From positions 1 to 11,595 of the IMG/VR virus record IMGVR_UViG_2579778753_000002: a stretch of 11,595 bases of DNA; one strand, written 5' to 3'. The position numbers were made by a program, and so were the translations under genes. The notes below the pieces were generated by a model. The model made no database searches. It was not told the origin of the DNA and worked only from the letters and a program-made list of their open reading frames with translations. The stretch comes from a virus. Lineage: Duplodnaviria; Heunggongvirae; Uroviricota; Caudoviricetes. This document shows, piece after piece, positions 1-11,595 of this stretch. Within the stretch, counting starts at the first letter, position 1, and each line of letters begins with the position of its first letter.

Positions 1-95
1 AGTTTGCTCCTGCCATAACGTGAAGAAGCAATGACCTGGTGGTCCGTGACTTCCCTACGCTGGCATTATCCAGATCAGGTGATACGGGTATTTCT
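1..95 (-). promoter_or_regulatory. thiM: 3' portion of the thiM TPP riboswitch / thiM 5' leader (thi-box 3' helices, P1 3' strand, SD), cut off from its 5' half by the island
   Basis: Reverse complement of 1-95 reads AGAAATACCCGTATCACCTGATCTGGATAATGCCAGCGTAGGGAAGTCACGGACCACCAGGTCATTGCTTCTTCACGTTATGGCAGGAGCAAACT. I recognise this from memory as the 3' two-thirds of the E. coli thiM thi-box leader ending at the SD (GGAG at 6-9, minus). The thiM ATG would lie immediately left of position 1, outside the window. Confidence 0.85.
82..95. repeat. att core / target-site direct repeat, left copy (ATACGGGTATTTCT)
   Basis: Exact 14-bp direct repeat with 11182-11195. Each copy is joined to one half of the thiM riboswitch sequence on its outer side and to island sequence on its inner side. 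Confidence 0.8.
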
Positions 96-154
96 TACTA
101 ATTTTTGTTATCAGTTGATAATTAATAAGTTTTTAAGCATATAAGAATTAAAAA

Positions 155-230
155 CCTCAAAAATGACCACACAACTGACCACACATTTCGTTGAAGCCCT
201 ACGAACAACGACGAACAATAACAAACAAAA
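155..230. repeat. Arm-type direct repeat (left), containing tandem TGACCACACA x2 and CGAACAA x2
   Basis: About 95% identical to 11031-11106 (4 differences over about 75 bp). In an excised circle the two copies would flank the core at roughly 60 and 85 bp, as integrase arm sites do in attP. Confidence 0.6.
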
Positions 231-466
231 GGGAAATTTGCTGGCAGTTTTGCTTAACCGTTATCATTTTTCGGCTATCCGCTATGAAGCTGGTGGATGA
301 TCACGGATAATCCGTTATGTGGATCCCCATATCGGCATCAGGCCCACCAGCGTGAAGCGTTTTTCATTTTTCGCGGGTATAAAAAATCGATGGGGCTGGC
401 AGTCCGGAAGACGTCAGGGTACAGAGATTTGACCCGCCCCTCCCTGTGCATGAGCACAATAAGTAA

Positions 467-490
467 CCGAAGGCGGAATTCCGCCCTCGG
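467..490 (-). terminator. Candidate intrinsic terminator for the leftward TerS-like/95-aa operon
   Basis: CCGAAGGCGG-AATT-CCGCCCTCGG: 10-bp GC-rich stem with one mismatch and a 4-nt loop. On the minus strand it is followed by TTACTTATTGT (T-rich). Confidence 0.4.
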
Positions 491-522
491 TGCTCACATA
501 TGAGAAACGATATTTCTTACAC

Positions 523-628
523 CGATACCCTTTATTTGGGTATCGCGAGTAAGCCCCAAAATCTGGGTGTTACTCTTACTACCCAAACTACGGGTAGTTT
601 CATAGTCGAGTTGCAGATCTGCAACTCG
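523..628. repeat. Cluster of three inverted repeats / palindromes in the island's terminal non-coding region
   Basis: 523-545 CGATACCC-tttattt-GGGTATCG (8-bp perfect stem). 585-600 AAACTAC-gg-GTAGTTT. 607-628 CGAGTTGCAGATCTGCAACTCG (perfect 22-bp palindrome centred on AGATCT/GATC). Confidence 0.6.
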
Positions 629-675
629 CCACCAGTTGCTAAGTGCATTTTTGCACTTTCGGTAATATCAACCAG

Positions 676-963
676 TTACCGCCGTAAGTGCTCCGGCTTC
701 CTCCACTGGTAAGTATTTTTCGCGCTCTCCCTCCGTTGTTGAGAACGGCGACGGTATGCCAGCAACTCAAGAACTCTGGTTCGTATGTTGCGCATATCCA
801 CGCCGTTAAGCTCAATACCGTCACGGCGCATTACCTCAGCCACCACACGCGCGTAATTTTCAGCGGTGACTGTATCCGGCTGCGCGGCCTGTTCGTCAGC
901 CAACTGGCTGATTCCACCAGCACAGCGGATTAATCGCAGTATTTCAGATTCGGTCATTATCAT
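676..963 (-). CDS. Hypothetical protein, 95 aa, Arg-rich basic C-terminus; translationally coupled to the upstream TerS-like gene
   Basis: ATG at 963-961 overlaps the TGA of the preceding ORF (ATGA overlap at 960-963). Ends in a basic tail (RRRSQQRRESAKNTYQWRKPEHLRR). No family recognised. Confidence 0.55.
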   Translation of the reverse strand: MIMTESEILRLIRCAGGISQLADEQAAQPDTVTAENYARVVAEVMRRDGIELNGVDMRNIRTRVLELLAYRRRSQQRRESAKNTYQWRKPEHLRR

Positions 964-1445
964 GCCTGTTTTGCGACCTCATTCACTACGTCATTTTTTA
1001 CCATCCGGCTGATAATCTGATTACGCAAATCGTCAATAATTGACTGCACTCTGTTTACTGCCATCGGTTTAAGCCCGGCATCACGTGCCAGAATATTGGG
1101 GAGTTTTGCCAGTTCCTCGCTTACGATTTCCCCCCATATAGCCATCTCTTTTCGCACATCATCGGCGGGTATGAGTTGCGCCGTTTCCTGTTCGAACCTG
1201 AGGCGCTCACGTTCGGACTGATACCAGGCCTTACGGTCATGTGGCTCCATTTCTTCCAGTGATGCCGGAACGGGAAGATCAAGAAAACAGGTCAGAATGT
1301 CAGTCACCCGATAGAGTTTTAGCTTGTCATGCCCTCCGGCTGGCTGGATGTTTTTCAGCCTTGCCGCCGCAGTCTGACGACATATTCCCGCTATCGCCGC
1401 CAGTTGATTAATGTTCAGCATCAGATTTTTCAGTTCTCGATCCAT
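960..1445 (-). CDS. Nu1-like small terminase-type HTH protein (candidate satellite TerS or Rpp-like packaging-redirection protein), about 161 aa
   Basis: The ORF-track start at 1532 is a TTG. I prefer the ATG at 1445-1443, preceded by GGAG. The N-terminus (MDRELKNLMLNINQLAAIAGICRQTAAARLKN...LYRVTDIL) has the layout of the lambda Nu1 winged-HTH DNA-binding domain, followed by a predicted helical region. Confidence 0.6.
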   Translation of the reverse strand: MDRELKNLMLNINQLAAIAGICRQTAAARLKNIQPAGGHDKLKLYRVTDILTCFLDLPVPASLEEMEPHDRKAWYQSERERLRFEQETAQLIPADDVRKEMAIWGEIVSEELAKLPNILARDAGLKPMAVNRVQSIIDDLRNQIISRMVKNDVVNEVAKQA

Positions 1446-1716
1446 ACCCGCTCCAGAATGTTTTAAACATGCATCTTGCGAACAACTTTCAGAAGAGGTC
1501 AAAAAATGCGCTATATGTTGAGCATAAAACAAGCAAAATTAACATGCCAAAAATAAAAATACTTAAAATTCAATACAATAGAAAGATGATGATGACGAAT
1601 GAAAATGCAAAAACTAGCCTTTTTCCGCGCCGCTCCCGCCCCGTGGCAGGCCACCTCACCGGGAGGACCCACCCAAAAAAGGCGACTGTCACTATTGTTT
1701 ATGCTCCATGAGCGAC

Positions 1717-1738
1717 AAAACCGCCCGCAGGCGGTTTT
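1717..1738 (-). terminator. Rho-independent terminator (usable in both directions) after the gpI-like gene
   Basis: AAAA-CCGCC-cgca-GGCGG-TTTT, 18 nt downstream of the gpI-like stop (1756). Confidence 0.7.
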
Positions 1739-1755
1739 ACATAAAACGTTTTGTA

Positions 1756-2397
1756 TCAGCGACCAATCACCACAATCTGGCCGCCATCCCCTTCATCTGC
1801 TGTGCTGATCTCTTGCGAAATCACCCGCGACCCGACGCGCATTTCACCGTACAGAACAGGCACAACATTGCCCTGGGCAACCATGTTATCCAGAGAGGAG
1901 AAATAGGTGTTCTGCTTACCGTTATCCGTGGTGCTGGCTGTTGCTGTGCTGGCTTTCGGTGCCAGCATCTGTGCAACACCACCAAGTGTCATCGCCGCCC
2001 CCATTGAAAAGAGAATGTCACTGAAAGCGATACTGATTCCTGGCATCCAGATTGCCGTAGCAATCAGCGCCGCACCAAGCACCGCCTGAAACACGCCGCC
2101 ACTTTTGGCACCAGCCAGACGCGGTACGATGTGGATCACGGCACCATTTTCCAGCGGTTCATTAAGACGGGCTGATAATTCGTTTTCGCCTGTATCACGC
2201 CCGGCAATACGCACCTGATACCAACCATCGCTCAGTTTCTGACGAAACGCTGGGATCTGCATGGCCAGCGCCCGGATGGCTTCGGCCCCCGTTTTCACAT
2301 GAAGATCGATGCGGCGGCCAAATCGTTGTAAATCCCCGTAAAGGCAGATGCGTGCCATGCCCGGTGACGCCAGAGGGAGTGTGTGCGTCGCTGCCAT
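1756..2397 (-). CDS. Lambda gpI-like tail tip assembly protein, 213 aa
   Basis: ATG start with an AGAGAGG RBS. The protein (MAATHTLPLASPGMARICLYGDLQRFGRRIDL...ADEGDGGQIVVIGR) matches my recollection of lambda tail assembly protein I almost end to end, with a shorter Gly/Ala-rich central region. Recalled, not searched. Confidence 0.65.
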   Translation of the reverse strand: MAATHTLPLASPGMARICLYGDLQRFGRRIDLHVKTGAEAIRALAMQIPAFRQKLSDGWYQVRIAGRDTGENELSARLNEPLENGAVIHIVPRLAGAKSGGVFQAVLGAALIATAIWMPGISIAFSDILFSMGAAMTLGGVAQMLAPKASTATASTTDNGKQNTYFSSLDNMVAQGNVVPVLYGEMRVGSRVISQEISTADEGDGGQIVVIGR

Positions 2398-2486
2398 TTG
2401 TCGGTATACCTCTCTCGTTTGCTCAGTTGTTCAGGAATATGGTGCGGCAGCTCGCCGCCCCACGTGTTCAAAGTACCGCCTTGTTG

Positions 2487-4400
2487 TCATGCTCCATTCG
2501 ATTTCAGCAATCCACGATAATCGAGGGCCGCGACACCTGCATCTATGCGCACCTTCCAGGCGACACCATCAACAGTAAAGCCCACCTGCTCCTCAAGATA
2601 TGGCGTATCCATACCATCAAGATAAGCGACTTCTATTGTGTCCATCCCCTTAGCTGCGGCTACATACCATTCCTTGCTATTGGCCTTATCAAGACGTGGC
2701 TCAACAATTACTTCTGCCATATCTTTCACAACGTTAATGATGCCGGGGTTCTGATTGATAGTACCCTCATCACCAACCGGAAAGACTGATGACGATGACA
2801 GAATGGCGCGACGCGCGGCAGATTCCAGCGCGGCAGGGACCAGAACAAAAGCAGGGGTAATATTCAGTGAGTCGCCGTTAGCATCCTCCTGGAGGCGCAT
2901 CAGCTTACGGGCTTCATCAAGCCCCACCATGTCCATATCCTTCGCAATAAGATTTTTATGATCGGCATGGAATAACGCTTTACCATCCGTAAACTTGCCG
3001 TTGCTGGTTAACAGGAGATAAACCAGATTGCCAACTGTTCTGGCGGCTGCGCGTCCCATCGCCATGGGGATTGTAGTTAACTGGGTCAGGTCATCGTTGA
3101 TAATGGCCTGACGGGTAACGGAAAAAATATTCCCGTACGTGGCCAGCGCAATAGGTACACCTTTATCGCTGGTGGTGATGTATTTATATTCCGCACCTTC
3201 CGGTACTTTATCCAGCTTTGAAAAACCATTCAGACCAACGCGCTTTGCTTCATGAAAGTTTGAAAGCGAACCGGTACGCGTCCATTTCTGGAACGTTTCG
3301 CCGCTGTCCTGCCAGCCTTTCAGTACAGATTTTTCAGCCCCACCAGCCAGAATATGAGAAAAATCACTGCTGCTGTGTGTAAAAGCCGCATTAACAACCT
3401 GCGAGCGATTAATAAAACCACTCACAGTGATACCACGATCAACCAGTGATGCCTGGGCCATTTCAAAAAGGCTCATCATCGCGTAAGGGTTGCCTCGTTC
3501 AGGGCGTTCATACCCAAGACGGGAATAAAGCCCCTGACGAATTGCATCACCTGTTATGTTTCCGTTTCCGGCATAGATATGAGGCGGAGTATTTTTATTG
3601 GATGGCGTGGACTCGCGCCCCAGCTCGTTCAACAGCTTTTCACGGGCCATTTCCGGTGTACATGATGCATCTTCCAGACACGCCATTTTGATCCCGTCGT
3701 AACGACTGCCGAACAGGCTAAACACTTCACTTATTCCATTGATGCGCTTCTGTTCATTACCAGCAATATTTGCCGCTCCCTGTGGCGGTGTAATCATTCC
3801 TTTAATGGTTTCCGGCATATGTAAAAAATCTCCTGTGCGCTTCGATTCAATTCGCGCCATTGCTCTGACGGATGGCAACAATTCATCAGCAAAACCGTGC
3901 TTAAGGCATTCTTTCCCGTCCATCCAGGTTTCATCTTCCAGCATGGCGGTAATTTCCTGTGCTGATTTGCCCGTTTTTCTGGCATAAGCAGGGACTAACA
4001 CGGTTTCCACCTTATCCAGCAAATCAGCATAATCACGCATATCACCAGCATTTCCGCCAGAGATACCCCACGGCTTATGTATCATCATCATGGCGTTTTC
4101 CGGCATCACAACACGATCGCCAGCCATTGCGACCACCGAAGCCATTGAAGCCGCAACACCATCGATATAAACCGTAATGTCTGCCGGATGATTCCGTAGC
4201 AGGTTATAGATGGCGATGCCTTCAAACACATCACCACCTGGTGAATGGATCCTCAGATTGATATGTGAAACATCGCCAAGGGCTTTCAGGTCTTCCGCGA
4301 ACTGCTTTGCAGTAACACCGAAGCCGCCAATCTCCTCATAGATAGATATATCCGCCGCTCCGCGAACATCCGCCGCCTTAATGGTGTACCAGCGATTCAT
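2487..4400 (-). CDS. Fusion of ClpP/S14-type prohead protease (N-terminal), linker/scaffold-like segment and HK97-fold major capsid protein (C-terminal), 637 aa
   Basis: N-terminus has ClpP-like motifs (HSPGGDVFEGIAIYN, GVAASMASVVAMAGD, MMMIHKPWG). The C-terminal 350 aa or so looks like a phage major capsid protein (ITPAFVLVPAALESAARRAI..., FTVDGVAWKVRIDAGVAALDYRG). ATG start with a GGGGGAA RBS. Long ORF with no internal stops. Confidence 0.85.
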   Translation of the reverse strand: MNRWYTIKAADVRGAADISIYEEIGGFGVTAKQFAEDLKALGDVSHINLRIHSPGGDVFEGIAIYNLLRNHPADITVYIDGVAASMASVVAMAGDRVVMPENAMMMIHKPWGISGGNAGDMRDYADLLDKVETVLVPAYARKTGKSAQEITAMLEDETWMDGKECLKHGFADELLPSVRAMARIESKRTGDFLHMPETIKGMITPPQGAANIAGNEQKRINGISEVFSLFGSRYDGIKMACLEDASCTPEMAREKLLNELGRESTPSNKNTPPHIYAGNGNITGDAIRQGLYSRLGYERPERGNPYAMMSLFEMAQASLVDRGITVSGFINRSQVVNAAFTHSSSDFSHILAGGAEKSVLKGWQDSGETFQKWTRTGSLSNFHEAKRVGLNGFSKLDKVPEGAEYKYITTSDKGVPIALATYGNIFSVTRQAIINDDLTQLTTIPMAMGRAAARTVGNLVYLLLTSNGKFTDGKALFHADHKNLIAKDMDMVGLDEARKLMRLQEDANGDSLNITPAFVLVPAALESAARRAILSSSSVFPVGDEGTINQNPGIINVVKDMAEVIVEPRLDKANSKEWYVAAAKGMDTIEVAYLDGMDTPYLEEQVGFTVDGVAWKVRIDAGVAALDYRGLLKSNGA

Positions 4401-4606
4401 TGTTCCCCCACCGATGCAAAACCATTCTGATTAAGCCAGGTGTTTACGGCATGTCTGACAATCTGCGCCACACCTGGTAATGGTTGGTCAGGATGATGAT
4501 TTATATGGTCGATCCTGTACTGCTTAAGGCGCATAACGGTCTGCGCATCCAGATGAACGGAACCACCTCTGGTATCACCTGTATTCAGGTCATTAATACA
4601 ACTCAC
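4397..4606 (-). CDS. Hypothetical small protein (69 aa), translationally coupled to the protease-capsid gene
   Basis: GTG start at 4606 preceded by AGAGGAAG. Its TGA overlaps the ATG of the capsid gene (ATGA at 4397-4400). Confidence 0.5.
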   Translation of the reverse strand: MSCINDLNTGDTRGGSVHLDAQTVMRLKQYRIDHINHHPDQPLPGVAQIVRHAVNTWLNQNGFASVGEQ

Positions 4607-4708
4607 AGCAACTTCCTCTGACTGACTAAACTATGCACATTATTGATCGATAAAAGTGGTAAATAAACATGTTTCTATCATAAAAACAGATTAATTAGAT
4701 TCAGACAC

Positions 4709-4731
4709 AAAAAAGCCGGATTTCTCCGGCT
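4709..4731 (-). terminator. Rho-independent terminator ending the replication operon / ori region
   Basis: On the minus strand: AGCCGGA-gaaa-TCCGGCT followed by TTTTTTG. Confidence 0.65.
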
Positions 4732-4867
4732 TCTGTCACTCGTTGCTTAAAACGGTATGTTATCCCCGTACGGATCATCATTCCCCGCCTGTTGTTTTGG
4801 TGTGCTTCGCTGTCATAGGCTTTATCTCACAGCAGTAAATTAAAATTTTTGCGTTTTAACCCTTCAC

Positions 4868-5090
4868 CTGTTCACCTTTTGATATTTTCTCTTTTAATTC
4901 ATAATGTTAAGGGGTGAACAGTTTCAAAAAAACTATTCACCAACTGTTCACCACTGTTCACCCTTGAAGCTCAATAAACAATCAAAAAGGTGAACAGTGA
5001 ATAGTTTGGTGAACAGTTCATAAATAACTGTTCACCCTATAATATACTGATATAAAAGATATTTATGACAGGGTGAACAGTGGTGAACAG
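4868..5090. repeat. Iteron array (at least 9 copies of GGTGAACAG / CTGTTCACC in both orientations) with an AT-rich stretch: candidate P4-type origin of replication
   Basis: Direct copies at 4913, 4989, 5009, 5072, 5082. Inverted copies at 4868, 4944, 4954, 5029. Degenerate copies at 4933 and 4997. AT-rich 5041-5069. Sits immediately 3' of the alpha-like gene. The motif contains TGTTCACC, which I recall as the P4 alpha-binding type I iteron. Confidence 0.75.
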
Positions 5091-5103
5091 TTATTCCATA
5101 AGT

Positions 5104-6921
5104 TTAATTTTTGCTATCGTCATTAGTGACCGATACACATGATGGCATCCAGTCTTCTGATTCCTCCGTCAGTGTCACGTTTGAACGCAAACCGTGCTTC
5201 GTTTTCCGTTTCATATACTCCCTGCCATATTCCGCCATTGCCCCCGGCATATCTTTACCGAAGCGCGTCAGTGTTACAGGTTTACCAAACCCATGTGCCC
5301 TCATATAAGCCAGATAGGCATGATAGAGATACCTGCGTGGGCTGAATGGCACAATTTCAGCATTACCCACTAACAGGCCATCACACATTACCGACGCCAT
5401 GAGATAGCCGCAGAAGTCCACCAGCGAATCCCCCTCTCGCTTTATCGCCAGTGCTTCTTCTGATTTCTGCTGCTCATATAACAGGCGTCTGGCTTCGTCC
5501 TGGTCAGCAAACCGTGTAAGCAGATGGCGAATCACTACCGCCAGCTCACCTTCTATTTTTTCCGCCAGCATTGGATCACGTTCGTTCTCCGGTACAACTT
5601 CCGAAAAATTGAATATCACCCGACGACGTGAGATCCCCCCGCTGCGGTCACTGAATGACATGGCGTTATTGTTAACCGCCAGCACTACTGCCGGAATACG
5701 CGTTGAGTAGGGGGCTTTGTGTTTCGGGTCAATTGCCACCTTGTCACCGCCTGTAATAGCCTTAATCCCTGCCCCATCACCAGCGTAGCGGGTCATATCC
5801 GGCATGATAATCAGCGAAAAGCCAACCACTAACGCGCGTTCCCTTGCATCTTCCAGCGCCTTCATGCTTGCCGATACTGTGTTGGCCTTACCCGCCAGCA
5901 TGGTGCAAATCTCCGCCATCACGCTTTTACCACTTCCCCCTGGACCTGTTACCTCAATGAATAACTGCCAGTCGTACCGGTTCGCCAGCACCATGAATAA
6001 TGCAGCCAGTACGCGATCCGCCTTGCGGTCATTCTCAGCCACCGAACGGCGTAACCACTTCCAGAAATTCGGCGCATGTGTTGCCAGCATTTCCCCCTCT
6101 GCTGGTGGGCTGAAAGGTAATTCACTGGCAATTAACAACCAGTCGTTTTTGTTATGCTCCCGAAAATTACCTGTTCTGGTATCAAATACCCCGTTACTGA
6201 ATCCAATCAGGTTACGGGCTGTATTCCCCATTACAGGCAAACTTAACTTCATGGTATCGACCGCCGATTTAATGGCGTTCTGCGAATAGCTGATCTCCGC
6301 ATCAATGAAAATCTGCGCCATAGCTCGCTGTAATTCTTTATCCTGTACTGGCTCCCATACAACGCCGTTGTAATGGTGAACAGTGTCAGAGTCAGCATGA
6401 ATCGCCAGTTCACCGCCATAATGTGCCAGGAGAACTTCGCCGCGTTGACTTGCTCCCATCTGGTTAAGCGCCAGTGATGAAGCGTTATCGTCTTTTACCC
6501 GCTCTTTTTTCTTTACAGGCAGTTCAACTACCTTTTTCTTTTCCTCCAGCTCTGCCCGTTCACGTTCCAGATATTCGCGCCAGTTCTCCCGTTTCTGGCT
6601 GTGCATTCCTTCAGGGTAATAATCAGCATCCCTGACACCTGCCGCTGCCAGTTTCTGCCCGATGGTATTAACAAGCCCCGGACGCAATAACCCCGCCTGA
6701 TAGAGACGCACGCGATAGCGTCCGTCCGGTACGATTTGCAGGTTGTCCAGTTCGGCAAGTTGTTGCTCTCCAAGCCAGACAGGAGGCACGTTATCGCCAG
6801 CCAGTCGCCCGTCCTGTTCCTGCCACTGCTTCGCATGTGCCCACGCATTACTACCCGCAAAAATGATGACTTCCGTCATTTTGTCACGCGGCTGGTGTTT
6901 TAAATTTGGCGCTTTTTTCAT
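5104..6921 (-). CDS. P4 alpha-like replication protein (D5_N-type domain plus SF3 helicase with Walker A GPGGSGKS; phage/plasmid primase P4-family C-terminal region)
   Basis: About 605 aa from the ATG at 6921 (GGAG RBS); the ORF track extends to a GTG at 6936. Walker A VTGPGGSGKS, Walker B-like LVVGFSLIIMPD. Adjacent to the iteron array. Confidence 0.85.
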   Translation of the reverse strand: MKKAPNLKHQPRDKMTEVIIFAGSNAWAHAKQWQEQDGRLAGDNVPPVWLGEQQLAELDNLQIVPDGRYRVRLYQAGLLRPGLVNTIGQKLAAAGVRDADYYPEGMHSQKRENWREYLERERAELEEKKKVVELPVKKKERVKDDNASSLALNQMGASQRGEVLLAHYGGELAIHADSDTVHHYNGVVWEPVQDKELQRAMAQIFIDAEISYSQNAIKSAVDTMKLSLPVMGNTARNLIGFSNGVFDTRTGNFREHNKNDWLLIASELPFSPPAEGEMLATHAPNFWKWLRRSVAENDRKADRVLAALFMVLANRYDWQLFIEVTGPGGSGKSVMAEICTMLAGKANTVSASMKALEDARERALVVGFSLIIMPDMTRYAGDGAGIKAITGGDKVAIDPKHKAPYSTRIPAVVLAVNNNAMSFSDRSGGISRRRVIFNFSEVVPENERDPMLAEKIEGELAVVIRHLLTRFADQDEARRLLYEQQKSEEALAIKREGDSLVDFCGYLMASVMCDGLLVGNAEIVPFSPRRYLYHAYLAYMRAHGFGKPVTLTRFGKDMPGAMAEYGREYMKRKTKHGLRSNVTLTEESEDWMPSCVSVTNDDSKN

Positions 6922-7217
6922 TTCTGCTCTCTCCACGCGGCAATCATGTTTTTCAGTTCCTGTAGTTTTTTATCAACATCCATACATGACACATGGTTAT
7001 TTCTGGAAGGCGGGATTTCCCGCCGGAATCTGCAAATAAAGATCTCCACGTTCAGCGAACTATGAAATGAATAGCCATCACGAATAAAATACACACGGTC
7101 AAACATCAGTTCTTTTACCGTTACTCTGTTACCGTTCTTATCCAGATAAATAGCGCCGGGGATAATTTTGGGGTGTGCATAACCGCTGGCAGTCAAGCCA
7201 GATATATATGTTCTCAT
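6918..7217 (-). CDS. Hypothetical protein (99 aa), translationally coupled to the alpha-like gene
   Basis: ATG start. Its TGA overlaps the ATG of the alpha-like gene (ATGA at 6918-6921). No family recognised. Confidence 0.55.
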   Translation of the reverse strand: MRTYISGLTASGYAHPKIIPGAIYLDKNGNRVTVKELMFDRVYFIRDGYSFHSSLNVEIFICRFRREIPPSRNNHVSCMDVDKKLQELKNMIAAWREQK

Positions 7218-7223
7218 GATTAT

Positions 7224-7544
7224 TTATCCCCGATTTGAATCAGTATTCGCTTTCTTTATGGCATTTAATGCATCTGTGGCATTTTCAATGGTGCACCGTA
7301 ACGAAATATCAAACTGCCCAAGCATTGCCAGTAACAAACCGATATTACCCATATCAATGCGCATGGCCTTTTCGTCATAGTCCTCATTTTCTGACGCATG
7401 CCACATCAGGCTACCAATTGACGCAATACCCATTGATATATTGTCAGTAGCCCCATCCGCAGCGGAATAAACCTTTTTAGCAATATCATGCTCACAGTTA
7501 AAATGCGGATTAATCAGGTACTGGTAATTGGTCATGTCAGGCAT
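7224..7544 (-). CDS. Hypothetical acidic protein (106 aa)
   Basis: ATG at 7544 preceded by AGGGGGGG. Ends 7 nt before the next gene in the same operon. No family recognised. Confidence 0.55.
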   Translation of the reverse strand: MPDMTNYQYLINPHFNCEHDIAKKVYSAADGATDNISMGIASIGSLMWHASENEDYDEKAMRIDMGNIGLLLAMLGQFDISLRCTIENATDALNAIKKANTDSNRG

Positions 7545-7740
7545 GGCACCCCCCCTGACGAATACGGGCGGCGAATACCATCACGCAGCCAGCCGGGGAT
7601 TGCTGGCGTGCTTCCTGTTCGCTGGTGGCCACGATGGTAATCACGCGCGGTTGTGCCGTGCTCAGGGCGATAAAACGCCAGATGTATTTATTCAGGTTGT
7701 GCGAGTCCCGCCCTTGCGGGTGTGTGGTATGATTTCTCAT
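7537..7740 (-). CDS. Possible small protein (67 aa), first gene of the replication operon
   Basis: ATG at 7740 with GAGG 7 nt upstream. Its stop overlaps the 106-aa start by 8 nt (ATGCCTGA). It is the C-terminal segment of a long, otherwise implausible 362-aa ORF. Confidence 0.35.
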   Translation of the reverse strand: MRNHTTHPQGRDSHNLNKYIWRFIALSTAQPRVITIVATSEQEARQQSPAGCVMVFAARIRQGGCHA

Positions 7741-7838
7741 AGCTGCCTCGATAATCTTGCTATCGTTGGTGGTTAGAAGCCCCGTTACTGCTCCTACAGT
7801 GCGGGGTTTCGTCGTTTCTGCACCTTGCATTAACAAGG

Positions 7839-7916
7839 TGTAAGTAACTTTATTTATAGGTGGCTTACATGTCAATGCTTTTATGTAAGACTTTTTATGT
7901 GTATATTGTCTTACAC
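7839..7916. promoter_or_regulatory. Divergent promoter/operator region with four GTAAG/CTTAC half-sites
   Basis: Half-sites at 7840, 7864, 7885, 7910, including CTTACAT-N12-ATGTAAG. Minus-strand promoter candidate: -35 TTGACA (7875-7870), 17-bp spacer, -10 TAAAGT (7852-7847). Plus-strand candidate -10 TATATT (7902-7907). Confidence 0.45.
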
Positions 7917-7936
7917 TTTCATTGAGAGGATTACAG

Positions 7937-8242
7937 ATGGCTACAGGTTCAAAAAACGCAAAATCACAATCACTGACAGCTCGGATCCCGCATGATGTTA
8001 TTGAAGGCATGGAATCCGTAAAACTGGACGGTGAAAGCAACGCCGGATTCATAGTAACCGCCATGCGCGGTGAAATCGCCCGCCGCCAGGCAGAAGGAAG
8101 CGGAGAAAACCTCCTGGTTTCTTCGCTCGATGCCCTAGCGCAGGTGGAAAAAATCGGAGTCAAAGCCGCCGAGGAGATCGGGCAACTCGTCACCGTCGCG
8201 CGTGAAGAACTCCAGCGACGCAAGGTCAAAGAGCAGGAATAG
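7937..8242 (+). CDS. Ribbon-helix-helix-like putative DNA-binding regulator (101 aa)
   Basis: ATG at 7937 with GAGAGGA 6 nt upstream (the ORF track's 7922 start is a TTG). N-terminal beta-strand-plus-helix pattern (SLTARIPHDVIEGMESVKL). Transcribed opposite to the rest of the island. Confidence 0.55.
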   Translation: MATGSKNAKSQSLTARIPHDVIEGMESVKLDGESNAGFIVTAMRGEIARRQAEGSGENLLVSSLDALAQVEKIGVKAAEEIGQLVTVAREELQRRKVKEQE

Positions 8243-8299
8243 CCACTATCAGCGCCATAGTTTGAGGAACGCAGGCGCATTGCTTTACAGGACAGCACC

Positions 8300-8479
8300 A
8301 TGAGCGACACAGAATCAACCAAAACACCATCACCAACTCGTAAGAGACGACGCAAAAATATAGCGCATGAACATGAATCAGAAAGATTCGCACCTTGTTC
8401 GTTTGCTCTTGAGAAATTCCTTAAAGAGCACAGGAAAAAGCTCTCGTTGCAAACCTTGGAACGAACCAAATCTGACTGA
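8300..8479 (+). CDS. Possible small basic protein (59 aa), downstream of the RHH-like gene
   Basis: ATG at 8300, in-frame TGA at 8477-8479, just below the 60-aa track cutoff. Lys/Arg-rich N-terminus (TRKRRRKNIAHEHE). Followed by a strong terminator. Confidence 0.35.
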   Translation: MSDTESTKTPSPTRKRRRKNIAHEHESERFAPCSFALEKFLKEHRKKLSLQTLERTKSD

Positions 8480-8546
8480 TCACATTGCCCACCAGCCGCA
8501 AATGTGGCATTGTTGGCGATGCGTTCAAGTTTAGTGTGTATCCATT

Positions 8547-8575
8547 GGCGACCGCCCCCGGTCGCCTTTGTTTTA
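8547..8575 (+). terminator. Rho-independent terminator of the rightward RHH-like operon
   Basis: GGCGACCG-cccc-CGGTCGCC (8-bp perfect stem) followed by TTTGTTTTAT. Confidence 0.8.
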
Positions 8576-8593
8576 TATGTCATATGCTCCCCT

Positions 8594-8818
8594 TTACGCT
8601 GCCTTACCTGAATTAACGCGGTCACGGCTTTGCACCCAGTCCATAACTTCGGAAAGCAACCAGCCTACAGAACGCCCCCCAAGATTACGGCGAGACGGAA
8701 AGCCCCCTTTCTTCTCCAGTTCGTAGCGTGTAGTACGGCTGACGCCTGTTAACTTACGACATTCATCCTCACGAATTACGCGATCTGTTAGTGATTGAAA
8801 TTGTGTATTTTGATTCAT
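8594..8818 (-). CDS. alpA: AlpA-family prophage transcriptional regulator (74 aa)
   Basis: ATG with GAGGGTG RBS. HTH region (CRKLTGVSRTTRYELEKKGGFPSRRNLGGRSVGW) matches the AlpA/MerR-like fold found next to P4-type integrases. Confidence 0.85.
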   Translation of the reverse strand: MNQNTQFQSLTDRVIREDECRKLTGVSRTTRYELEKKGGFPSRRNLGGRSVGWLLSEVMDWVQSRDRVNSGKAA

Positions 8819-8921
8819 AAAAACACCCTCGAACGTAACCGAACAAGGGCATCTTATTTACCATAGCAGTTGGTGCAATATTGGAAAAATAAACTTTATT
8901 CTAATTTATCGTTCTCCATGA

Positions 8922-9776
8922 TTAATTTTCATTAGATAACATTTTTCTTATTTTTTCTAAAGAATCGCTGCGCATTATTTTTTCTAAGAAGGGTTTTACA
9001 GTCTGAGCAATAGCAAAGGTGTCCTTTTCACCATCAGGATACAAAGATACGGCAAGCACCCCTAATGAAATTTTTCTATCTGTAGACAACTCCCAAGATA
9101 ATAAGTCAATTAATGGGATTATCTTATAATCAATAATTTTACGTCGTATGCTCTCCCAACTTCCTGCAATTGGTTTGTCTGGCTCAACAATTGAAAGTTC
9201 ACTACGCCATTTTGGTAATAGTTTTGTAAACGCTTCAATCAACTCATCATCTCTGTTATGTAGTAAGTCAACAGAAACAAGCATATTATCTAATGTATCA
9301 GAAAGGAGATTCACTGGTTCACGCATCACAGCCCAAAACATCCCATTATCTTCTGATATTAAACTTCCAACCATCTCATTATCTATGATGATTGGTTTAT
9401 CCTTCCAATATCCTCTTTCCGCAGTCAGTTTATTAATCATTGATATATCAAACCTTGTTACAGGTTTAATTCCATCATCATAACTTAGCTCAATTAACTT
9501 CGGTTGCACTTTATGGTCATATTCTTTTTGTTTATCACAAAACCAATCGTCTTCTTTCAGCTCTCCAAATGGATCCCCGTAATTATTATGCAACGGGTAT
9601 TCAGCACCAAACATAAATCCATATTCAGGCATCTCAGAATGTTTCATCGTTAAATCATCTTGTCGCCAATATAATTGGCGAAATAGATCTTTATCCGACA
9701 AGTTTTCTAGGCAATCATATTTGCCTAAATCAAATGACTTTGGTAAATCTTTTTTACTATTTACTTTTTTCGTCAT
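8922..9776 (-). CDS. Hypothetical protein (284 aa), AT-rich cargo gene between int and alpA
   Basis: Uninterrupted 855-nt ORF. Its ATG overlaps the int TGA (ATGA at 9773-9776). Visibly more AT-rich than the flanking int and alpA. No recognisable catalytic motif. Confidence 0.75.
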   Translation of the reverse strand: MTKKVNSKKDLPKSFDLGKYDCLENLSDKDLFRQLYWRQDDLTMKHSEMPEYGFMFGAEYPLHNNYGDPFGELKEDDWFCDKQKEYDHKVQPKLIELSYDDGIKPVTRFDISMINKLTAERGYWKDKPIIIDNEMVGSLISEDNGMFWAVMREPVNLLSDTLDNMLVSVDLLHNRDDELIEAFTKLLPKWRSELSIVEPDKPIAGSWESIRRKIIDYKIIPLIDLLSWELSTDRKISLGVLAVSLYPDGEKDTFAIAQTVKPFLEKIMRSDSLEKIRKMLSNEN

Positions 9777-10993
9777 TGTATCCCTCTCAATATCACAATA
9801 TTTTCATTATATCCTGCAATCATATCAAGACGCTCAACCCATAGATTCAGTGCGTCCCGTTTCGCCTGCAAATAGCGTGAATGGTTATAGGTTTTTTGCT
9901 GACCTGGCATCTGATGCGCTGTGATGTGCTCCACGATATGCGGATCGACACCTAAATCATTCAGCATAGTTGTAAACGTGTGTCGGAAATCATGCAGCGT
10001 CCAGTGTTCCTGCTTAAGCCGCTTATGCGCATTTCGTCCATATTGCGCCACCGTGGTATCTTTTTTCAGTTCGCCGAGTAATAACCCAGTGTGTGCGTTT
10101 TGCTCCACCAGCTTCTGAATGAACGGCAAAATACCATCAGGAATAGGTCGGAATATTGTTACCTTCGTTTTGCTGTGCTCTTTTGGCACTGTCCACAACA
10201 TTTCTTTCAGATCCCATTCTTTGATCTCTGAAAGTCTGATCTCTGCCGTTCTGCACCCGAACACAATTAACAAGCGCATTAACGCACTGTAATAGGGAGC
10301 GAACACATCACCATCAATAGCGCGTAGAATTTCTTTTAGTTCGCTGTTGCTGTGCACTCTCTCGCGGATTTCTGCTCTCTTACCCACATCAGTAACGATC
10401 AAATCGTCCAGGGCGTTGCTAAACGCGTAGCGCCGCCTGCGGCAAAACTTTAGCGCCTGTTTGCATGTCTGCATGACATGGCCCGCTGCTACTGGTGCTT
10501 TTTTTCGTACGCGGTCAAAACATGCGATCCACTGCCTTGTATCACACTTATCAAGGGGAATTGCCCCAATATGGCAAATGATGTGCTTATCCATACGCTG
10601 CACCAGCTTTATGTAATCTTTGCGGTTATCCTTCGCGTATTCCTCCAGCCAGTAGTTAATCGCTTCCTTCACCGTAACGGGTTTTAGTGCTTCCTGTACT
10701 GTGGCGCACAACTCATAACGGGGGTTTTTACCCTCAGCCAGCCATGCCCGGCACAGTGTGCGTTTTTCCCTTGCGGCTTTCAGCGACAATTCAGGGTAAG
10801 CCCCCAGCTTTAACCGCTCTGCGGCAACCTCACGGCCTCCCGTTCGGTACCGGAAATACCAGGTTAATTTGCCGCCCTTTGAGTGTTTAATCTCCAGCCC
10901 GCCCCCGTCGGAGTAAAAACGCTCTTTTTCTGCCTGGACAGCCGCCAATTTTTTTAACGTCGAATCGCTCAGTTTGTTTAGTGCTTTTCCCAC
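9773..10993 (-). CDS. int: P4-family tyrosine integrase (406 aa)
   Basis: GTG start with GAGGA RBS. N-terminal arm-binding-type region (GGLEIKHSKGGKLTWYFRYR...GAYPELSLKAAREKR). C-terminal catalytic region with HDFRHTF and a downstream Tyr. Adjacent to the att site. Confidence 0.9.
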   Translation of the reverse strand: MGKALNKLSDSTLKKLAAVQAEKERFYSDGGGLEIKHSKGGKLTWYFRYRTGGREVAAERLKLGAYPELSLKAAREKRTLCRAWLAEGKNPRYELCATVQEALKPVTVKEAINYWLEEYAKDNRKDYIKLVQRMDKHIICHIGAIPLDKCDTRQWIACFDRVRKKAPVAAGHVMQTCKQALKFCRRRRYAFSNALDDLIVTDVGKRAEIRERVHSNSELKEILRAIDGDVFAPYYSALMRLLIVFGCRTAEIRLSEIKEWDLKEMLWTVPKEHSKTKVTIFRPIPDGILPFIQKLVEQNAHTGLLLGELKKDTTVAQYGRNAHKRLKQEHWTLHDFRHTFTTMLNDLGVDPHIVEHITAHQMPGQQKTYNHSRYLQAKRDALNLWVERLDMIAGYNENIVILRGIQ

Positions 10994-11030
10994 TATCAGA
11001 TCCTCTTTTCAGTCCTCCAGCCTCAAAAAA

Positions 11031-11106
11031 CTGACCACACAACTGACCACACATTTTGTTGAAGCTCTACGAACAACGACGAACAACAACAAACAATAAA
11101 ACAGGA
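11031..11106. repeat. Arm-type direct repeat (right), partner of 155-230
   Basis: Same tandem TGACCACACA and CGAACAA sub-repeats. Lies in the int upstream region, about 40 bp from the int start. Confidence 0.6.
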
Positions 11107-11181
11107 TAATTTATTGTTTATCAAATACATACATAAACAACCACAAGCAACCCCGAACCACAAAAAACACTAAATGAGAAA

Positions 11182-11195
11182 ATACGGGTATTTCT
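11182..11195. repeat. att core / target-site direct repeat, right copy
   Basis: Identical to 82-95. Confidence 0.8.
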
Positions 11196-11238
11196 CAGCC
11201 TTCACGCAGAAGGGCACCCCGAGTCGTTTGGTTGCGAT
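11182..11238 (-). promoter_or_regulatory. thiM: 5' portion of the thiM TPP riboswitch aptamer (P1 5' strand, P2, P3, CUGAGA), separated from its 3' half
   Basis: Reverse complement reads CAACCAAACGACTCGGGGTGCCCTTCTGCGTGAAGGCTGAGAAATACCCGTAT, which I recognise as the 5' half of the thiM thi-box. Confidence 0.85.
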
Positions 11239-11322
11239 GATAAATCGCAGAGGAGGATGGTAATGTCCAGCGCACGCGTTGTAAACGAGGAAAAACGGCA
11301 GTTTTACAATCGCGTTAATAAA

Positions 11323-11595
11323 TTATTTGATATATGAATCCAGCACCTTCAGAACGACATCCAGATCTTCTTCACGTTTTAGCTCATCCCCCTGGTGAAC
11401 GATGTGTTCCGTCAGATGACCTTTAATCACTTCCCGCATCAGACCGTTTACCGCGCCACGGATAGCAGCAATCTGTTGTAAAACTGCAGCGCATTCGTGC
11501 GGCTCGTCGAGCATTTTCTTGAGCGCCACGACCTGGCCCTGAATCTTACTGGCACGCGCTTTCAGTTTCTGTTTATCACGGATTGTATGAGACAT
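11323..11595 (-). CDS. rcnR: RcnR, Ni/Co-responsive transcriptional repressor (CsoR/RcnR family), 90 aa, complete
   Basis: ATG at 11595. The protein ([64 protein letters not shown]...) matches my recollection of E. coli RcnR, including the His-Cys metal-site signature. Confidence 0.9.

Follow-up and report, generated by a model that had tools for sequence, protein, structure and literature searches.

A probable two-layer quiescence module in a Gram-negative phage-inducible chromosomal island: a predicted ribbon-helix-helix repressor and a candidate cis-antisense RNA

What keeps a Gram-negative phage-inducible chromosomal island (PICI) silent? AlpA is an activator in these satellites, and their global repressor has been stated to be "unclear" (PMC6092414). 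The question is raised by virus record IMGVR_UViG_2579778753_000002, positions 1–11,595 (hereafter the window, the whole stretch of 11,595 nt that was analysed), which holds a ~10.9-kb integrated element beside rcnR, a PICI-type phage satellite of Escherichia coli. Between alpA and the leftward replication operon of this island sits a plus-strand unit made up of a gene for a 101-aa protein, a 59-aa open reading frame (ORF) and a terminator. We consider it likely, on comparative grounds, that this region is the quiescence (immunity) module of the island and that it works in two layers, an autoregulated ribbon-helix-helix (RHH) repressor and a cis-antisense RNA. An earlier reading of the sequence (the original prediction) had called the region an immunity/induction switch, and we infer from the comparisons below that this label may well apply.

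The control region contains two promoters, which had been described as overlapping and which instead lie back-to-back, with −35 regions at 7870–7875 and ~7879–7884. The leftward promoter, P_L (7847–7875, minus strand), is as well formed as had been claimed, with TTGACA at 7875–7870, a 17-nt spacer and TAAAGT at 7852–7847 (10/12 matches). It is predicted to drive the operon of the icd-like, DUF4222 and primase genes, and relatives, read by eye, keep TTGAC and a TAnnnT hexamer 17 nt downstream of it. The rightward promoter of the RHH gene, P_R (7898–7907, plus strand), is placed by conservation. Its putative −10, TATATT at 7902–7907, follows TGTG, and most relatives have TGTGTATAAT, TGTGTATACT or TGTGTATATT at this position, with TATAAT in many; a promoter scanner made no call for P_R, whose −35 is poor.

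Of the six copies of the hexamer TGTAAG in the whole window, four fall within 7839–7915 (+7839, −7864, +7884 and −7910) as two inverted pairs, in agreement with the four half-sites that had been noted across both promoters. When the intergenic region was shuffled 5000 times with its dinucleotides preserved, one and the same hexamer was repeated four times inside 80 nt in 5 of the shuffles. The putative operator sites extend to (A/G)TGTAAG and span 7837–7917. Site 1, GGTGTAAG (7837–7844, plus strand), covers the predicted +1 of P_L; site 2, CATGTAAG (7864–7871, minus strand), lies in the P_L spacer and overlaps its −35 by 2 nt; site 3, TATGTAAG (7882–7889, plus strand), is at the −35 position of P_R; and site 4, AGTGTAAG (7910–7917, minus strand), covers the predicted +1 of P_R. 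From centre to centre the hexamers are separated by 25, 20 and 26 bp, with the two-fold axis of the array in the gap between both −35 regions.

The gene that these sites precede is present as originally proposed, with an ATG at 7937, a stop at 8242 and 101 codons' worth of protein on the plus strand, and relatives of its product were used to ask how the sites vary. We assembled 33 loci, 21 of them found via the protein alone (a genome scan plus exact-protein look-ups) and 12 from IMG/VR; a naive word-count motif finder was confounded by T-runs, and the sites were extracted at fixed offsets instead. Four sites at about −98, −74, −53 and −29 from the ATG are seen in all 33 loci, which come from many enterobacterial genera. 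The alignment of homologues is conserved over the full length of the protein except at residues 11–15, so placed that the variable residues cluster in the predicted DNA-reading β-strand (residues ~11–18, QSLTARIP). The sequence of the sites tracks residues 12 and 14 of this strand in eight classes over the 33 loci, with no exception. Proteins with S,T at these positions face GTGTAAG (the window, Enterobacter soli and Klebsiella electrica), and those with L,T face GTGTTTC (Xenorhabdus, Photorhabdus, Serratia and E. coli). L/V/I/M,N goes with GTGTGTATTT-like sites (GTGT(G)TAT type) in which the two inner sites are inverted, Q,N with GGTATTC, Q,S with GTGATT, A,A with GTGT(A/T)(A/T)AC, and M,S with GTGTAGTC. 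The GTG(T) prefix is common to all classes, which would fit the invariant R16, and the sites run right-left-right-left in most classes and right-right-left-left in the K-N classes. Together, the fixed positions and the co-variation argue for the divergent switch of the original prediction, in which the RHH-like protein acts on the four half-sites. The pattern points to DNA being read by alternate residues of an N-terminal strand, as in RHH proteins, and we regard this operator co-variation as the strongest result of the analysis.

The repeats adjoin the RHH gene and are so inherited together with it, and the co-variation could then be mere linkage, the repeats being bound by AlpA, a host factor or a helper-phage protein. 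Only one regulator, AlpA, has been demonstrated to act in islands of this kind (PMC6092414). We accord this explanation only the slightest probability. AlpA and site class are uncoupled, since AlpA proteins 92% identical accompany different sites and AlpA proteins 62% identical accompany the same sites, and on this ground AlpA was rejected as the reader of the repeats. Overall protein identity does not set the site class either: a Klebsiella protein only 64% identical (S,T) shares the site of the window, whereas an E. coli protein 85% identical (L,T) has a different one. The concentration of variability in the predicted DNA-reading strand is likewise at odds with linkage.

The repeats might alternatively serve autoregulation only, with the RHH protein and the 59-aa ORF forming a toxin-antitoxin-like or otherwise self-contained cassette that leaves the replication operon uncontrolled. 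This is very unlikely in our judgement. Most loci with the protein, the sites and the RNA have no 59-aa ORF; two sites of the four fall on the +1 and spacer of P_L and not on P_R; and the gene is without exception paired divergently with the icd-like operon.

Is the 101-aa protein indeed an RHH repressor? Residues 9–50 match the YlcI/YnfO family, NCBIfam NF041551, at E 4.7e-20 (71.4 bits against a cutoff of 30), and the NCBI Prokaryotic Genome Annotation Pipeline (PGAP) applies the same label to its counterpart in the capsid-forming PICI of strain PEC414 (locus L001) and in hundreds of E. coli genomes. Homologues that are 64–99% identical occur in Escherichia, Salmonella, Citrobacter, Yersinia, Klebsiella, Enterobacter, Serratia, Edwardsiella, Erwinia, Pectobacterium, Cronobacter, Xenorhabdus and Photorhabdus, and in a few sources they are named "Arc-like DNA binding domain" or "CopG family". 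The AlphaFold2 (AF2) monomer has an extended segment at residues 12–18, helices at 19–28 and 35–54, and a long helix at 59–100, with a pLDDT of 79 overall; the C-terminal helix is single and continuous, at pLDDT 83–95. The strand-helix-helix order of an RHH protein is thus found together with the G-x-S/T/N turn before helix 2, here G32-E33-S34, in which E33 never varies; the same is true of R16 and P18. We take R16-x-P18 and G32-E33-S34 to be Arc/Mnt signatures (compare R13-W-P of Arc).

Profile comparisons are weak or transitive. Alignment by hhalign with Arc covers residues 9–53 at E 0.009, which is weak, and that with Mnt has an E of 0.068. A PDB profile search with the window protein returned no RHH structure among its matches, and the three fold searches were uninformative and gave the RHH fold no support. 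IMG/VR loci that lack a YlcI/YnfO gene have short RHH proteins in its place. When a profile was built from such slot-equivalent short proteins of other islands, the N-terminal domain of the window protein could be aligned to it at E 4.6e-5, and the best PDB matches of these 57–67-aa proteins are Arc (E 0.0045), an Arc-family protein, Mnt and AmrZ. Given this transitive link we class the window protein as RHH, extended by a helix at its C terminus, an architecture that would resemble Mnt. For the originally proposed RHH-like identity, the sequence signature and the weak or transitive profile matches speak, and the fold searches do not.

Two other assignments were considered for this protein and dropped. 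Residues 45–88 weakly match the helix-hairpin-helix domain of the archaeal Hef nuclease (1x2i_A, E 0.0078), and there was one HHH_2 match; we did not adopt a helix-hairpin-helix for the C-terminal half, where AF2 has the continuous helix 59–100 and the first glycine of the G-h-G motif is absent. Rpp, the PICI packaging-redirecting protein, is ruled out by its description as a winged helix-turn-helix mimic of TerS encoded after the origin (PMC6739421). As a separate observation, a number of IMG/VR loci (L027, L044, L045, L054, L064, L077, L094 and others) have the antisense-RNA element and the Icd-like gene without a YlcI/YnfO protein, and their slot, at +70 to +305 from the RNA motif in L027, L044, L045 and the like, is filled by unrelated-looking 57–67-aa Arc/CopG-like proteins. 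Some of these slot-equivalent proteins and certain YlcI/YnfO-type proteins have a common tail, ...RRGIEPKG, which suggests domain swapping among the slot repressors.

The second layer would be an RNA. The original prediction had placed a GC hairpin at 7780–7806 and offered it as either a small regulatory RNA or a leader structure; the hairpin is there, its stem in fact extending over 7776–7810, and of the two options a small plus-strand RNA fits the data better than a minus-strand leader, on the basis of covariation and G·U asymmetry. Two elements not in that account are a second stem-loop at 7741–7774 and a palindrome at 7821–7840. We predict a cis-antisense RNA of ~78 nt at 7741–7818 on the plus strand. 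It would consist of stem-loop SL1 (outer stem 7741–7747/7768–7774, inner stem 7749–7753/7761–7765), the terminator stem SL2 (7776–7810) and a U-rich tail, UUUCGUCGUUUC, that overlaps the end of the stem and reaches 7818. The plus strand of 7741–7818 folds at −33.1 kcal/mol (z = −4.9), and RNAalifold recovers both stems with 17 and with 41 relatives. When the stretch from the first leftward gene to site 1 is aligned for 17 loci, 95.6% of the cells are paired and 11 of the 19 pairs have changed on both sides, a result that none of 500 shuffles reached. A covariance model, R1, trained only on non-E. coli relatives matches 7741–7820 on the plus strand at 67.8 bits (E 1.3e-12); it has no match in 95 kb of control DNA, two 46–49-kb stretches of CFT073 comprising a lambdoid prophage and core genes.

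Could the hairpins instead be the leader of the leftward, minus-strand mRNA, as a translational operator or stability element, with the plus-strand RNA irrelevant? The minus strand does fold better than its shuffles (−32.3 kcal/mol, z −3.7), and the first stem encloses or abuts the Shine-Dalgarno sequence. The decisive point is strand asymmetry. In the alignment, 32 cells form G·U pairs when read as plus-strand RNA and none would do so when read as minus-strand RNA, and 307 of 321 cells pair on the plus strand against 275 of 321 on the minus; alifold gives −24.3 kcal/mol for the plus strand but −10.2 for the minus, each of the 17 loci has the more stable fold on the plus strand, and the covariance model finds no minus-strand match in the window. 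The structure would therefore be that of a plus-strand RNA, and we regard the leader explanation as highly improbable.

Where such an RNA would start is suggested by its predicted promoter (7725–7733, plus strand), a TG at 7725–7726, one further base and the −10 TATGAT at 7728–7733. A scanner for consensus promoters did not call it because it has no −35. In more than 60 related sequences, however, a TAnnnT hexamer stands exactly 7 nt before the first paired base (AGC...) of the 5′ helix, with TATGAT, TATGCT, TAGACT, TACGAT, TATAAT and TAATAT among its variants, and it is kept in two coding contexts of the overlapping first gene while the codons vary (N-H-T, N-R-T, D-Y-I and D-I-T). From this fixed distance we place the predicted 5′ end at A7741, adjoining the Icd-like start codon, and the 3′ end at ~7812–7818. 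The length from the hexamer-defined start to the tail is constant at 78–86 nt, and in an alignment of 76 sequences a T-rich tail follows the 3′ stem, often as a clean run, for example GGGGCGTTGTTTTTTG.

These data also bear on whether the plus-strand structure is only a terminator or attenuator, with no dedicated small RNA, that insulates P_R from stray antisense transcription or attenuates a long repressor leader. The lack of a −35 would be in keeping with this, and the G·U asymmetry and U-rich tail indicate a structure that works in plus-strand RNA and not where such an RNA begins. Nevertheless, we think it unlikely: the hexamer is fixed at 7 nt across two coding contexts, the start-to-tail length does not drift, and a second conserved, co-varying 5′ stem-loop, for which a bare terminator would have no need, begins just there. 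Everything expected of a cis-antisense RNA is found at the level of sequence, namely a −10, plus-strand structure, a terminator stem with a U-rich tail and complementarity to a ribosome-binding site, and we predict that an RNA of ~78 nt is expressed and controls its target.

A pattern scan of IMG/VR returned 120 loci with this element, with a YlcI/YnfO-type gene ~165 nt downstream in 45 and an Icd-like gene ending ~25 nt upstream in 50. No Rfam family reached its gathering score over the whole window, and with E up to 10 in 7400–8900 only irrelevant chance matches to P31, snoR86 and SprD appeared. None of the genome records of related modules annotates an RNA at the 7741–7818 locus.

The target would be the first gene of the leftward replication operon (7537–7740, minus strand), which encodes a 67-aa Icd-like protein (NCBIfam NF033153 phage_ICD_like, E 1.3e-19); PGAP also names the gene Icd-like in the L001 island, where the region is 99.4% identical. 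Its Shine-Dalgarno sequence, GAGG at 7749–7746, and the whole of its 5′ untranslated region (5′UTR) downstream of ~7818 are complementary to the predicted RNA. The icd-like stop overlaps the start of the next gene (7544), and this overlap at 7537–7544 suggests translational coupling. A 362-aa open frame at 7537–8625 on the minus strand runs antisense through the repressor unit; it is spurious except for its last 67 codons, a trap for gene callers.

Between the RNA and site 1 lies the palindrome CACCTTG-N6-CAAGGTG (7821–7840), at the predicted +1 of P_L and with its right arm overlapping site 1. In the minus-strand fold it is the 5′-terminal stem-loop of the leftward transcript. Its arms co-vary among the 76 relatives with no strand bias (39 vs 35 of 76), and its possible roles are to stabilise the 5′ end of the leftward mRNA as a hairpin, to act as a second terminator or to bind a protein.

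In the mechanism that we propose, an Arc/Mnt-like RHH protein would be made from the weak P_R, and its dimers would read the four 7–8-bp (A/G)TGTAAG sites through β-strand residues 12, 14 and 16, the long C-terminal helix probably linking dimers into a larger assembly. RHH oligomers on sites 1 and 2, which flank the P_L core, would occlude P_L, and on sites 3 and 4, which flank P_R, they would limit synthesis of the repressor itself. With sites on both promoters, one protein would therefore shut the replication operon and hold its own level down. In the second layer, the ~78-nt RNA would start at A7741 from its own −10 inside the first icd-like codons, end at the 7776–7810 terminator and pair perfectly with ~75 nt of the ~100-nt leftward 5′UTR, including GAGG at 7749–7746. 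Pairing may block Icd-like translation or trigger cleavage of the mRNA, with downstream genes affected via coupled translation, and leaky leftward transcripts would thus be kept silent. The Icd-like family is named after the P1 cell-division inhibitor.

How the module would be induced is more speculative. The alpA gene (8594–8818, minus strand; Pfam Phage_AlpA, E 4.8e-16) is co-oriented with the leftward operon and convergent with the RHH unit. Since alpA lies upstream in the same orientation, and the only terminator in between is oriented to the plus strand, antisense read-through is possible: alpA transcription induced by a helper might continue leftward across the convergent repressor unit and enter the operon. 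In Pseudomonas, AlpA acts as a processive antiterminator (PMC7969949, PMC9371919), which makes read-through plausible and proves nothing for this island.

Several points weigh against this two-layer model. Its functional claims rest throughout on comparative evidence from sequences. Pfam at E 0.1 finds nothing in the window protein, and PF07704, which appears in 17 of 24 relatives, is weak, its best match (E 0.0024) failing to reach the cutoff. The 20–26-bp spacing of the sites is far wider than in the Arc, Mnt, MetJ and CopG operators, so that the predicted binding geometry would be unusual for an RHH protein. Neither P_R nor the RNA promoter has a credible −35. The RNA −10 lies within coding sequence, and its conservation is thus possibly driven in part by the protein encoded there, while the U-tract of the window terminator (UUUCGUCGUUUC) is interrupted. 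Finally, AlpA is the known activator in EcCICFT073, where published work explains induction by AlpA alone.

The closest known logic is that of P22 immI, which has the RHH repressors Mnt and Arc, the divergent promoters P_ant and P_mnt and the sar antisense RNA, and which was reportedly worked out by Susskind and co-workers. The predicted module is like it in pairing a small RHH repressor that has a C-terminal helical oligomerisation part, as in Mnt, with a divergent controlled operon, in placing operators on closely spaced divergent promoters, and in a cis-antisense RNA of ~70–80 nt with its own promoter and complementarity to a ribosome-binding site in the controlled operon. It differs in several respects. 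There is no detectable sequence relationship (the values for Arc and Mnt are those given above), and Rfam, which we presume may hold a P22 sar model, matches nothing; P22 has one compact 17–21-bp operator where four sites 20–26 bp apart are found here; the RNA would target the first gene, icd-like, and not an antirepressor; and the controlled operon is a satellite replication module without a second repressor of the Arc type.

A second comparison is immI of P1/P7, with c4 RNA, icd and ant, in which c4 is excised from the same transcript and pairs via short loops. Here too an Icd-family gene opens the operon, an RNA is placed to mask its ribosome-binding site and the downstream genes are probably coupled. 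The predicted RNA is on the opposite strand and fully complementary, however, whereas c4 is a same-strand RNA, and Rfam C4 (RF01695) has no match even at E 10. The module is a member of neither the P22 nor the P1 immI system: sequence and covariance-model matches are absent, and it departs from them in operator geometry, in the strand of the RNA relative to c4 and in the genes under control. C4/isrK-type "immunity RNAs" and Bro-type proteins have been described in this zone of some Gram-negative PICIs, and later surveys name nothing else there (PMC10111431). With the P4 CI, C4 and isrK RNAs the module would share an RNA immunity element located between the integration and replication modules; those RNAs are same-strand, act by premature termination and are detectable by Rfam, unlike the opposite-strand RNA of the window.

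On the protein side, Stl and Rpr are the master repressors of Gram-positive PICIs, the Staphylococcus aureus pathogenicity islands (SaPIs) (PMC6092414). The likeness is a repressor gene divergent from the excision/replication operon and a shared control region between the integrase and replication sides; the difference is that Stl and Rpr are larger helix-turn-helix proteins lifted by helper-phage proteins, whereas here a 101-aa predicted RHH protein is found and AlpA is also present. RHH repressors that read arrays of short repeats include ω of pSM19035, CopG and ParG, and the heptads of ω abut. An asymmetric 7–8-bp unit used in both orientations is common to these and to the window, but unlike those of ω the units here are 2–2.5 helical turns apart at fixed promoter positions. 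The E. coli K-12 proteins YlcI (DLP12) and YnfO (Qin) share with the window protein the 42-residue N-terminal domain that defines NF041551; they are shorter proteins, located in lambdoid late regions, and a text search of PMC and bioRxiv found no functional study of them. Literature searches on YlcI/YnfO, RHH with PICI, Icd-like, and repressor with capsid-forming PICI found no prior description of the protein, the sites or the RNA, most subscription journals being outside their scope. We therefore see the module as a variant of known regulatory kinds in an element class where such a module is undescribed, and its predicted protein and RNA look like the missing "off switch" of Gram-negative PICIs.

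At least 80% of 7725–8242 is carried by 478 of 5426 complete E. coli genomes (~9%), and some part of it by 1502 of the 5426; strain Ecol_224 (NZ_CP018948.1) has a module 100% identical to that of the window. If the model is right, those 478 genomes hold an undescribed repressor whose specificity is readable and swappable, and an unannotated antisense RNA, in still more E. coli genomes, guards a cell-division inhibitor and satellite replication genes. The silence of the satellite and what a helper phage must overcome would become directly testable with point mutations taken from the co-variation classes, and orthogonal repressor/operator pairs would be at hand for engineered PICI "drones". A broader proposal we put forward tentatively and regard as rather doubtful: that the 101-aa RHH protein is the Stl-equivalent master repressor of many Gram-negative and capsid-forming PICIs, with at least eight immunity specificities; that its conserved C-terminal helix is a sensor to be defeated by a helper-phage protein or by AlpA-driven transcription; and that the RNA founds a new family of satellite immunity RNAs whose invariant UGGUUAGA might act in trans on helper-phage or host messages.

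Downstream of the repressor gene, the 59-aa basic ORF of the original prediction (8300–8479, plus strand) holds up. Its match is phrog_21027 (E 5e-15). Relatives in E. coli keep it intact, with an in-frame 2-codon indel, and it has a ratio of nonsynonymous to synonymous substitution rates (dN/dS) of 0.15–0.23, like the preceding gene, against 0.56–1.4 in a shifted frame. It thus appears to be a real gene under purifying selection and co-transcribed with the RHH gene. It is found in E. coli islands only, other islands having different small ORFs or Bro-N genes there. The strong terminator said to follow it is also present, as the intrinsic terminator of the rightward unit (8547–8575, plus strand), GGCGACCGCCCCCGGTCGCC and then TTTGTTTTA. 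Seven of the 8 pairs in its stem at 8547–8566 are GC, and TTTGTTTT comes next; both the T-run and the terminator call are confined to the plus strand. The same terminator sequence occurs 3′ of other repressor types in relatives, where spurious ORFs read ...PLATAPGRLCFMCH. As a candidate cos site the 8547–8566 hairpin was rejected, there being no match with up to 3 mismatches in the hairpin region; a cosN-like sequence sits elsewhere, at 2449–2460.

That sequence, GGGCGGCGAGCT (minus strand), has 1 mismatch to the lambda cohesive-end GGGCGGCGACCT, lies between the genes for the protease-capsid fusion and the 213-aa protein, and is probably the cos site of the island. The att-like direct repeats, presumably attL and attR, are at 164–~229 and 11032–~11097 and agree exactly over 25 nt and over a longer stretch with mismatches. 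The minus strand encodes, in order, the tyrosine integrase int (9773–10993), a DUF6387 gene, alpA, the Icd-like gene, two small genes, a D5-type primase (5104–6936), the protease-capsid fusion and a DUF1441 gene. As judged from genes and sequence alone, the window thus has the int, alpA, primase, att-like repeats and cosN-like site by which a Gram-negative PICI is recognised (Fillol-Salom et al. 2018), and the published gene order of such islands (PMC6092414) matches that of the window.

The stretch 7500–8900 is 99.4% identical to the control region of the capsid-forming PICI in strain PEC414 (L001), and the module has therefore been exchanged between satellite types. In PEC414 a near-identical int/alpA/repressor/primase half is fused to a full late region of a capsid-forming PICI. 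That region has separate capsid, protease, portal, HNH, TerS and TerL genes, and the window has instead the protease-capsid fusion, the 213-aa gene and the DUF1441 gene, a comparison, made with window positions 1–7200, that indicates recent replacement of the late module. Finally, two further records stand out among the related loci. A typical enterobacterial-type module lies on a 7.5-kb contig labelled Martelella alba, an alphaproteobacterium (L007), which may be assembly contamination. One 16.6-kb contig of Xenorhabdus vietnamensis contains two copies of the module (L010 and L011) with the same operator class, a few kb apart and in opposite orientation, and these may be tandem or nested satellites.

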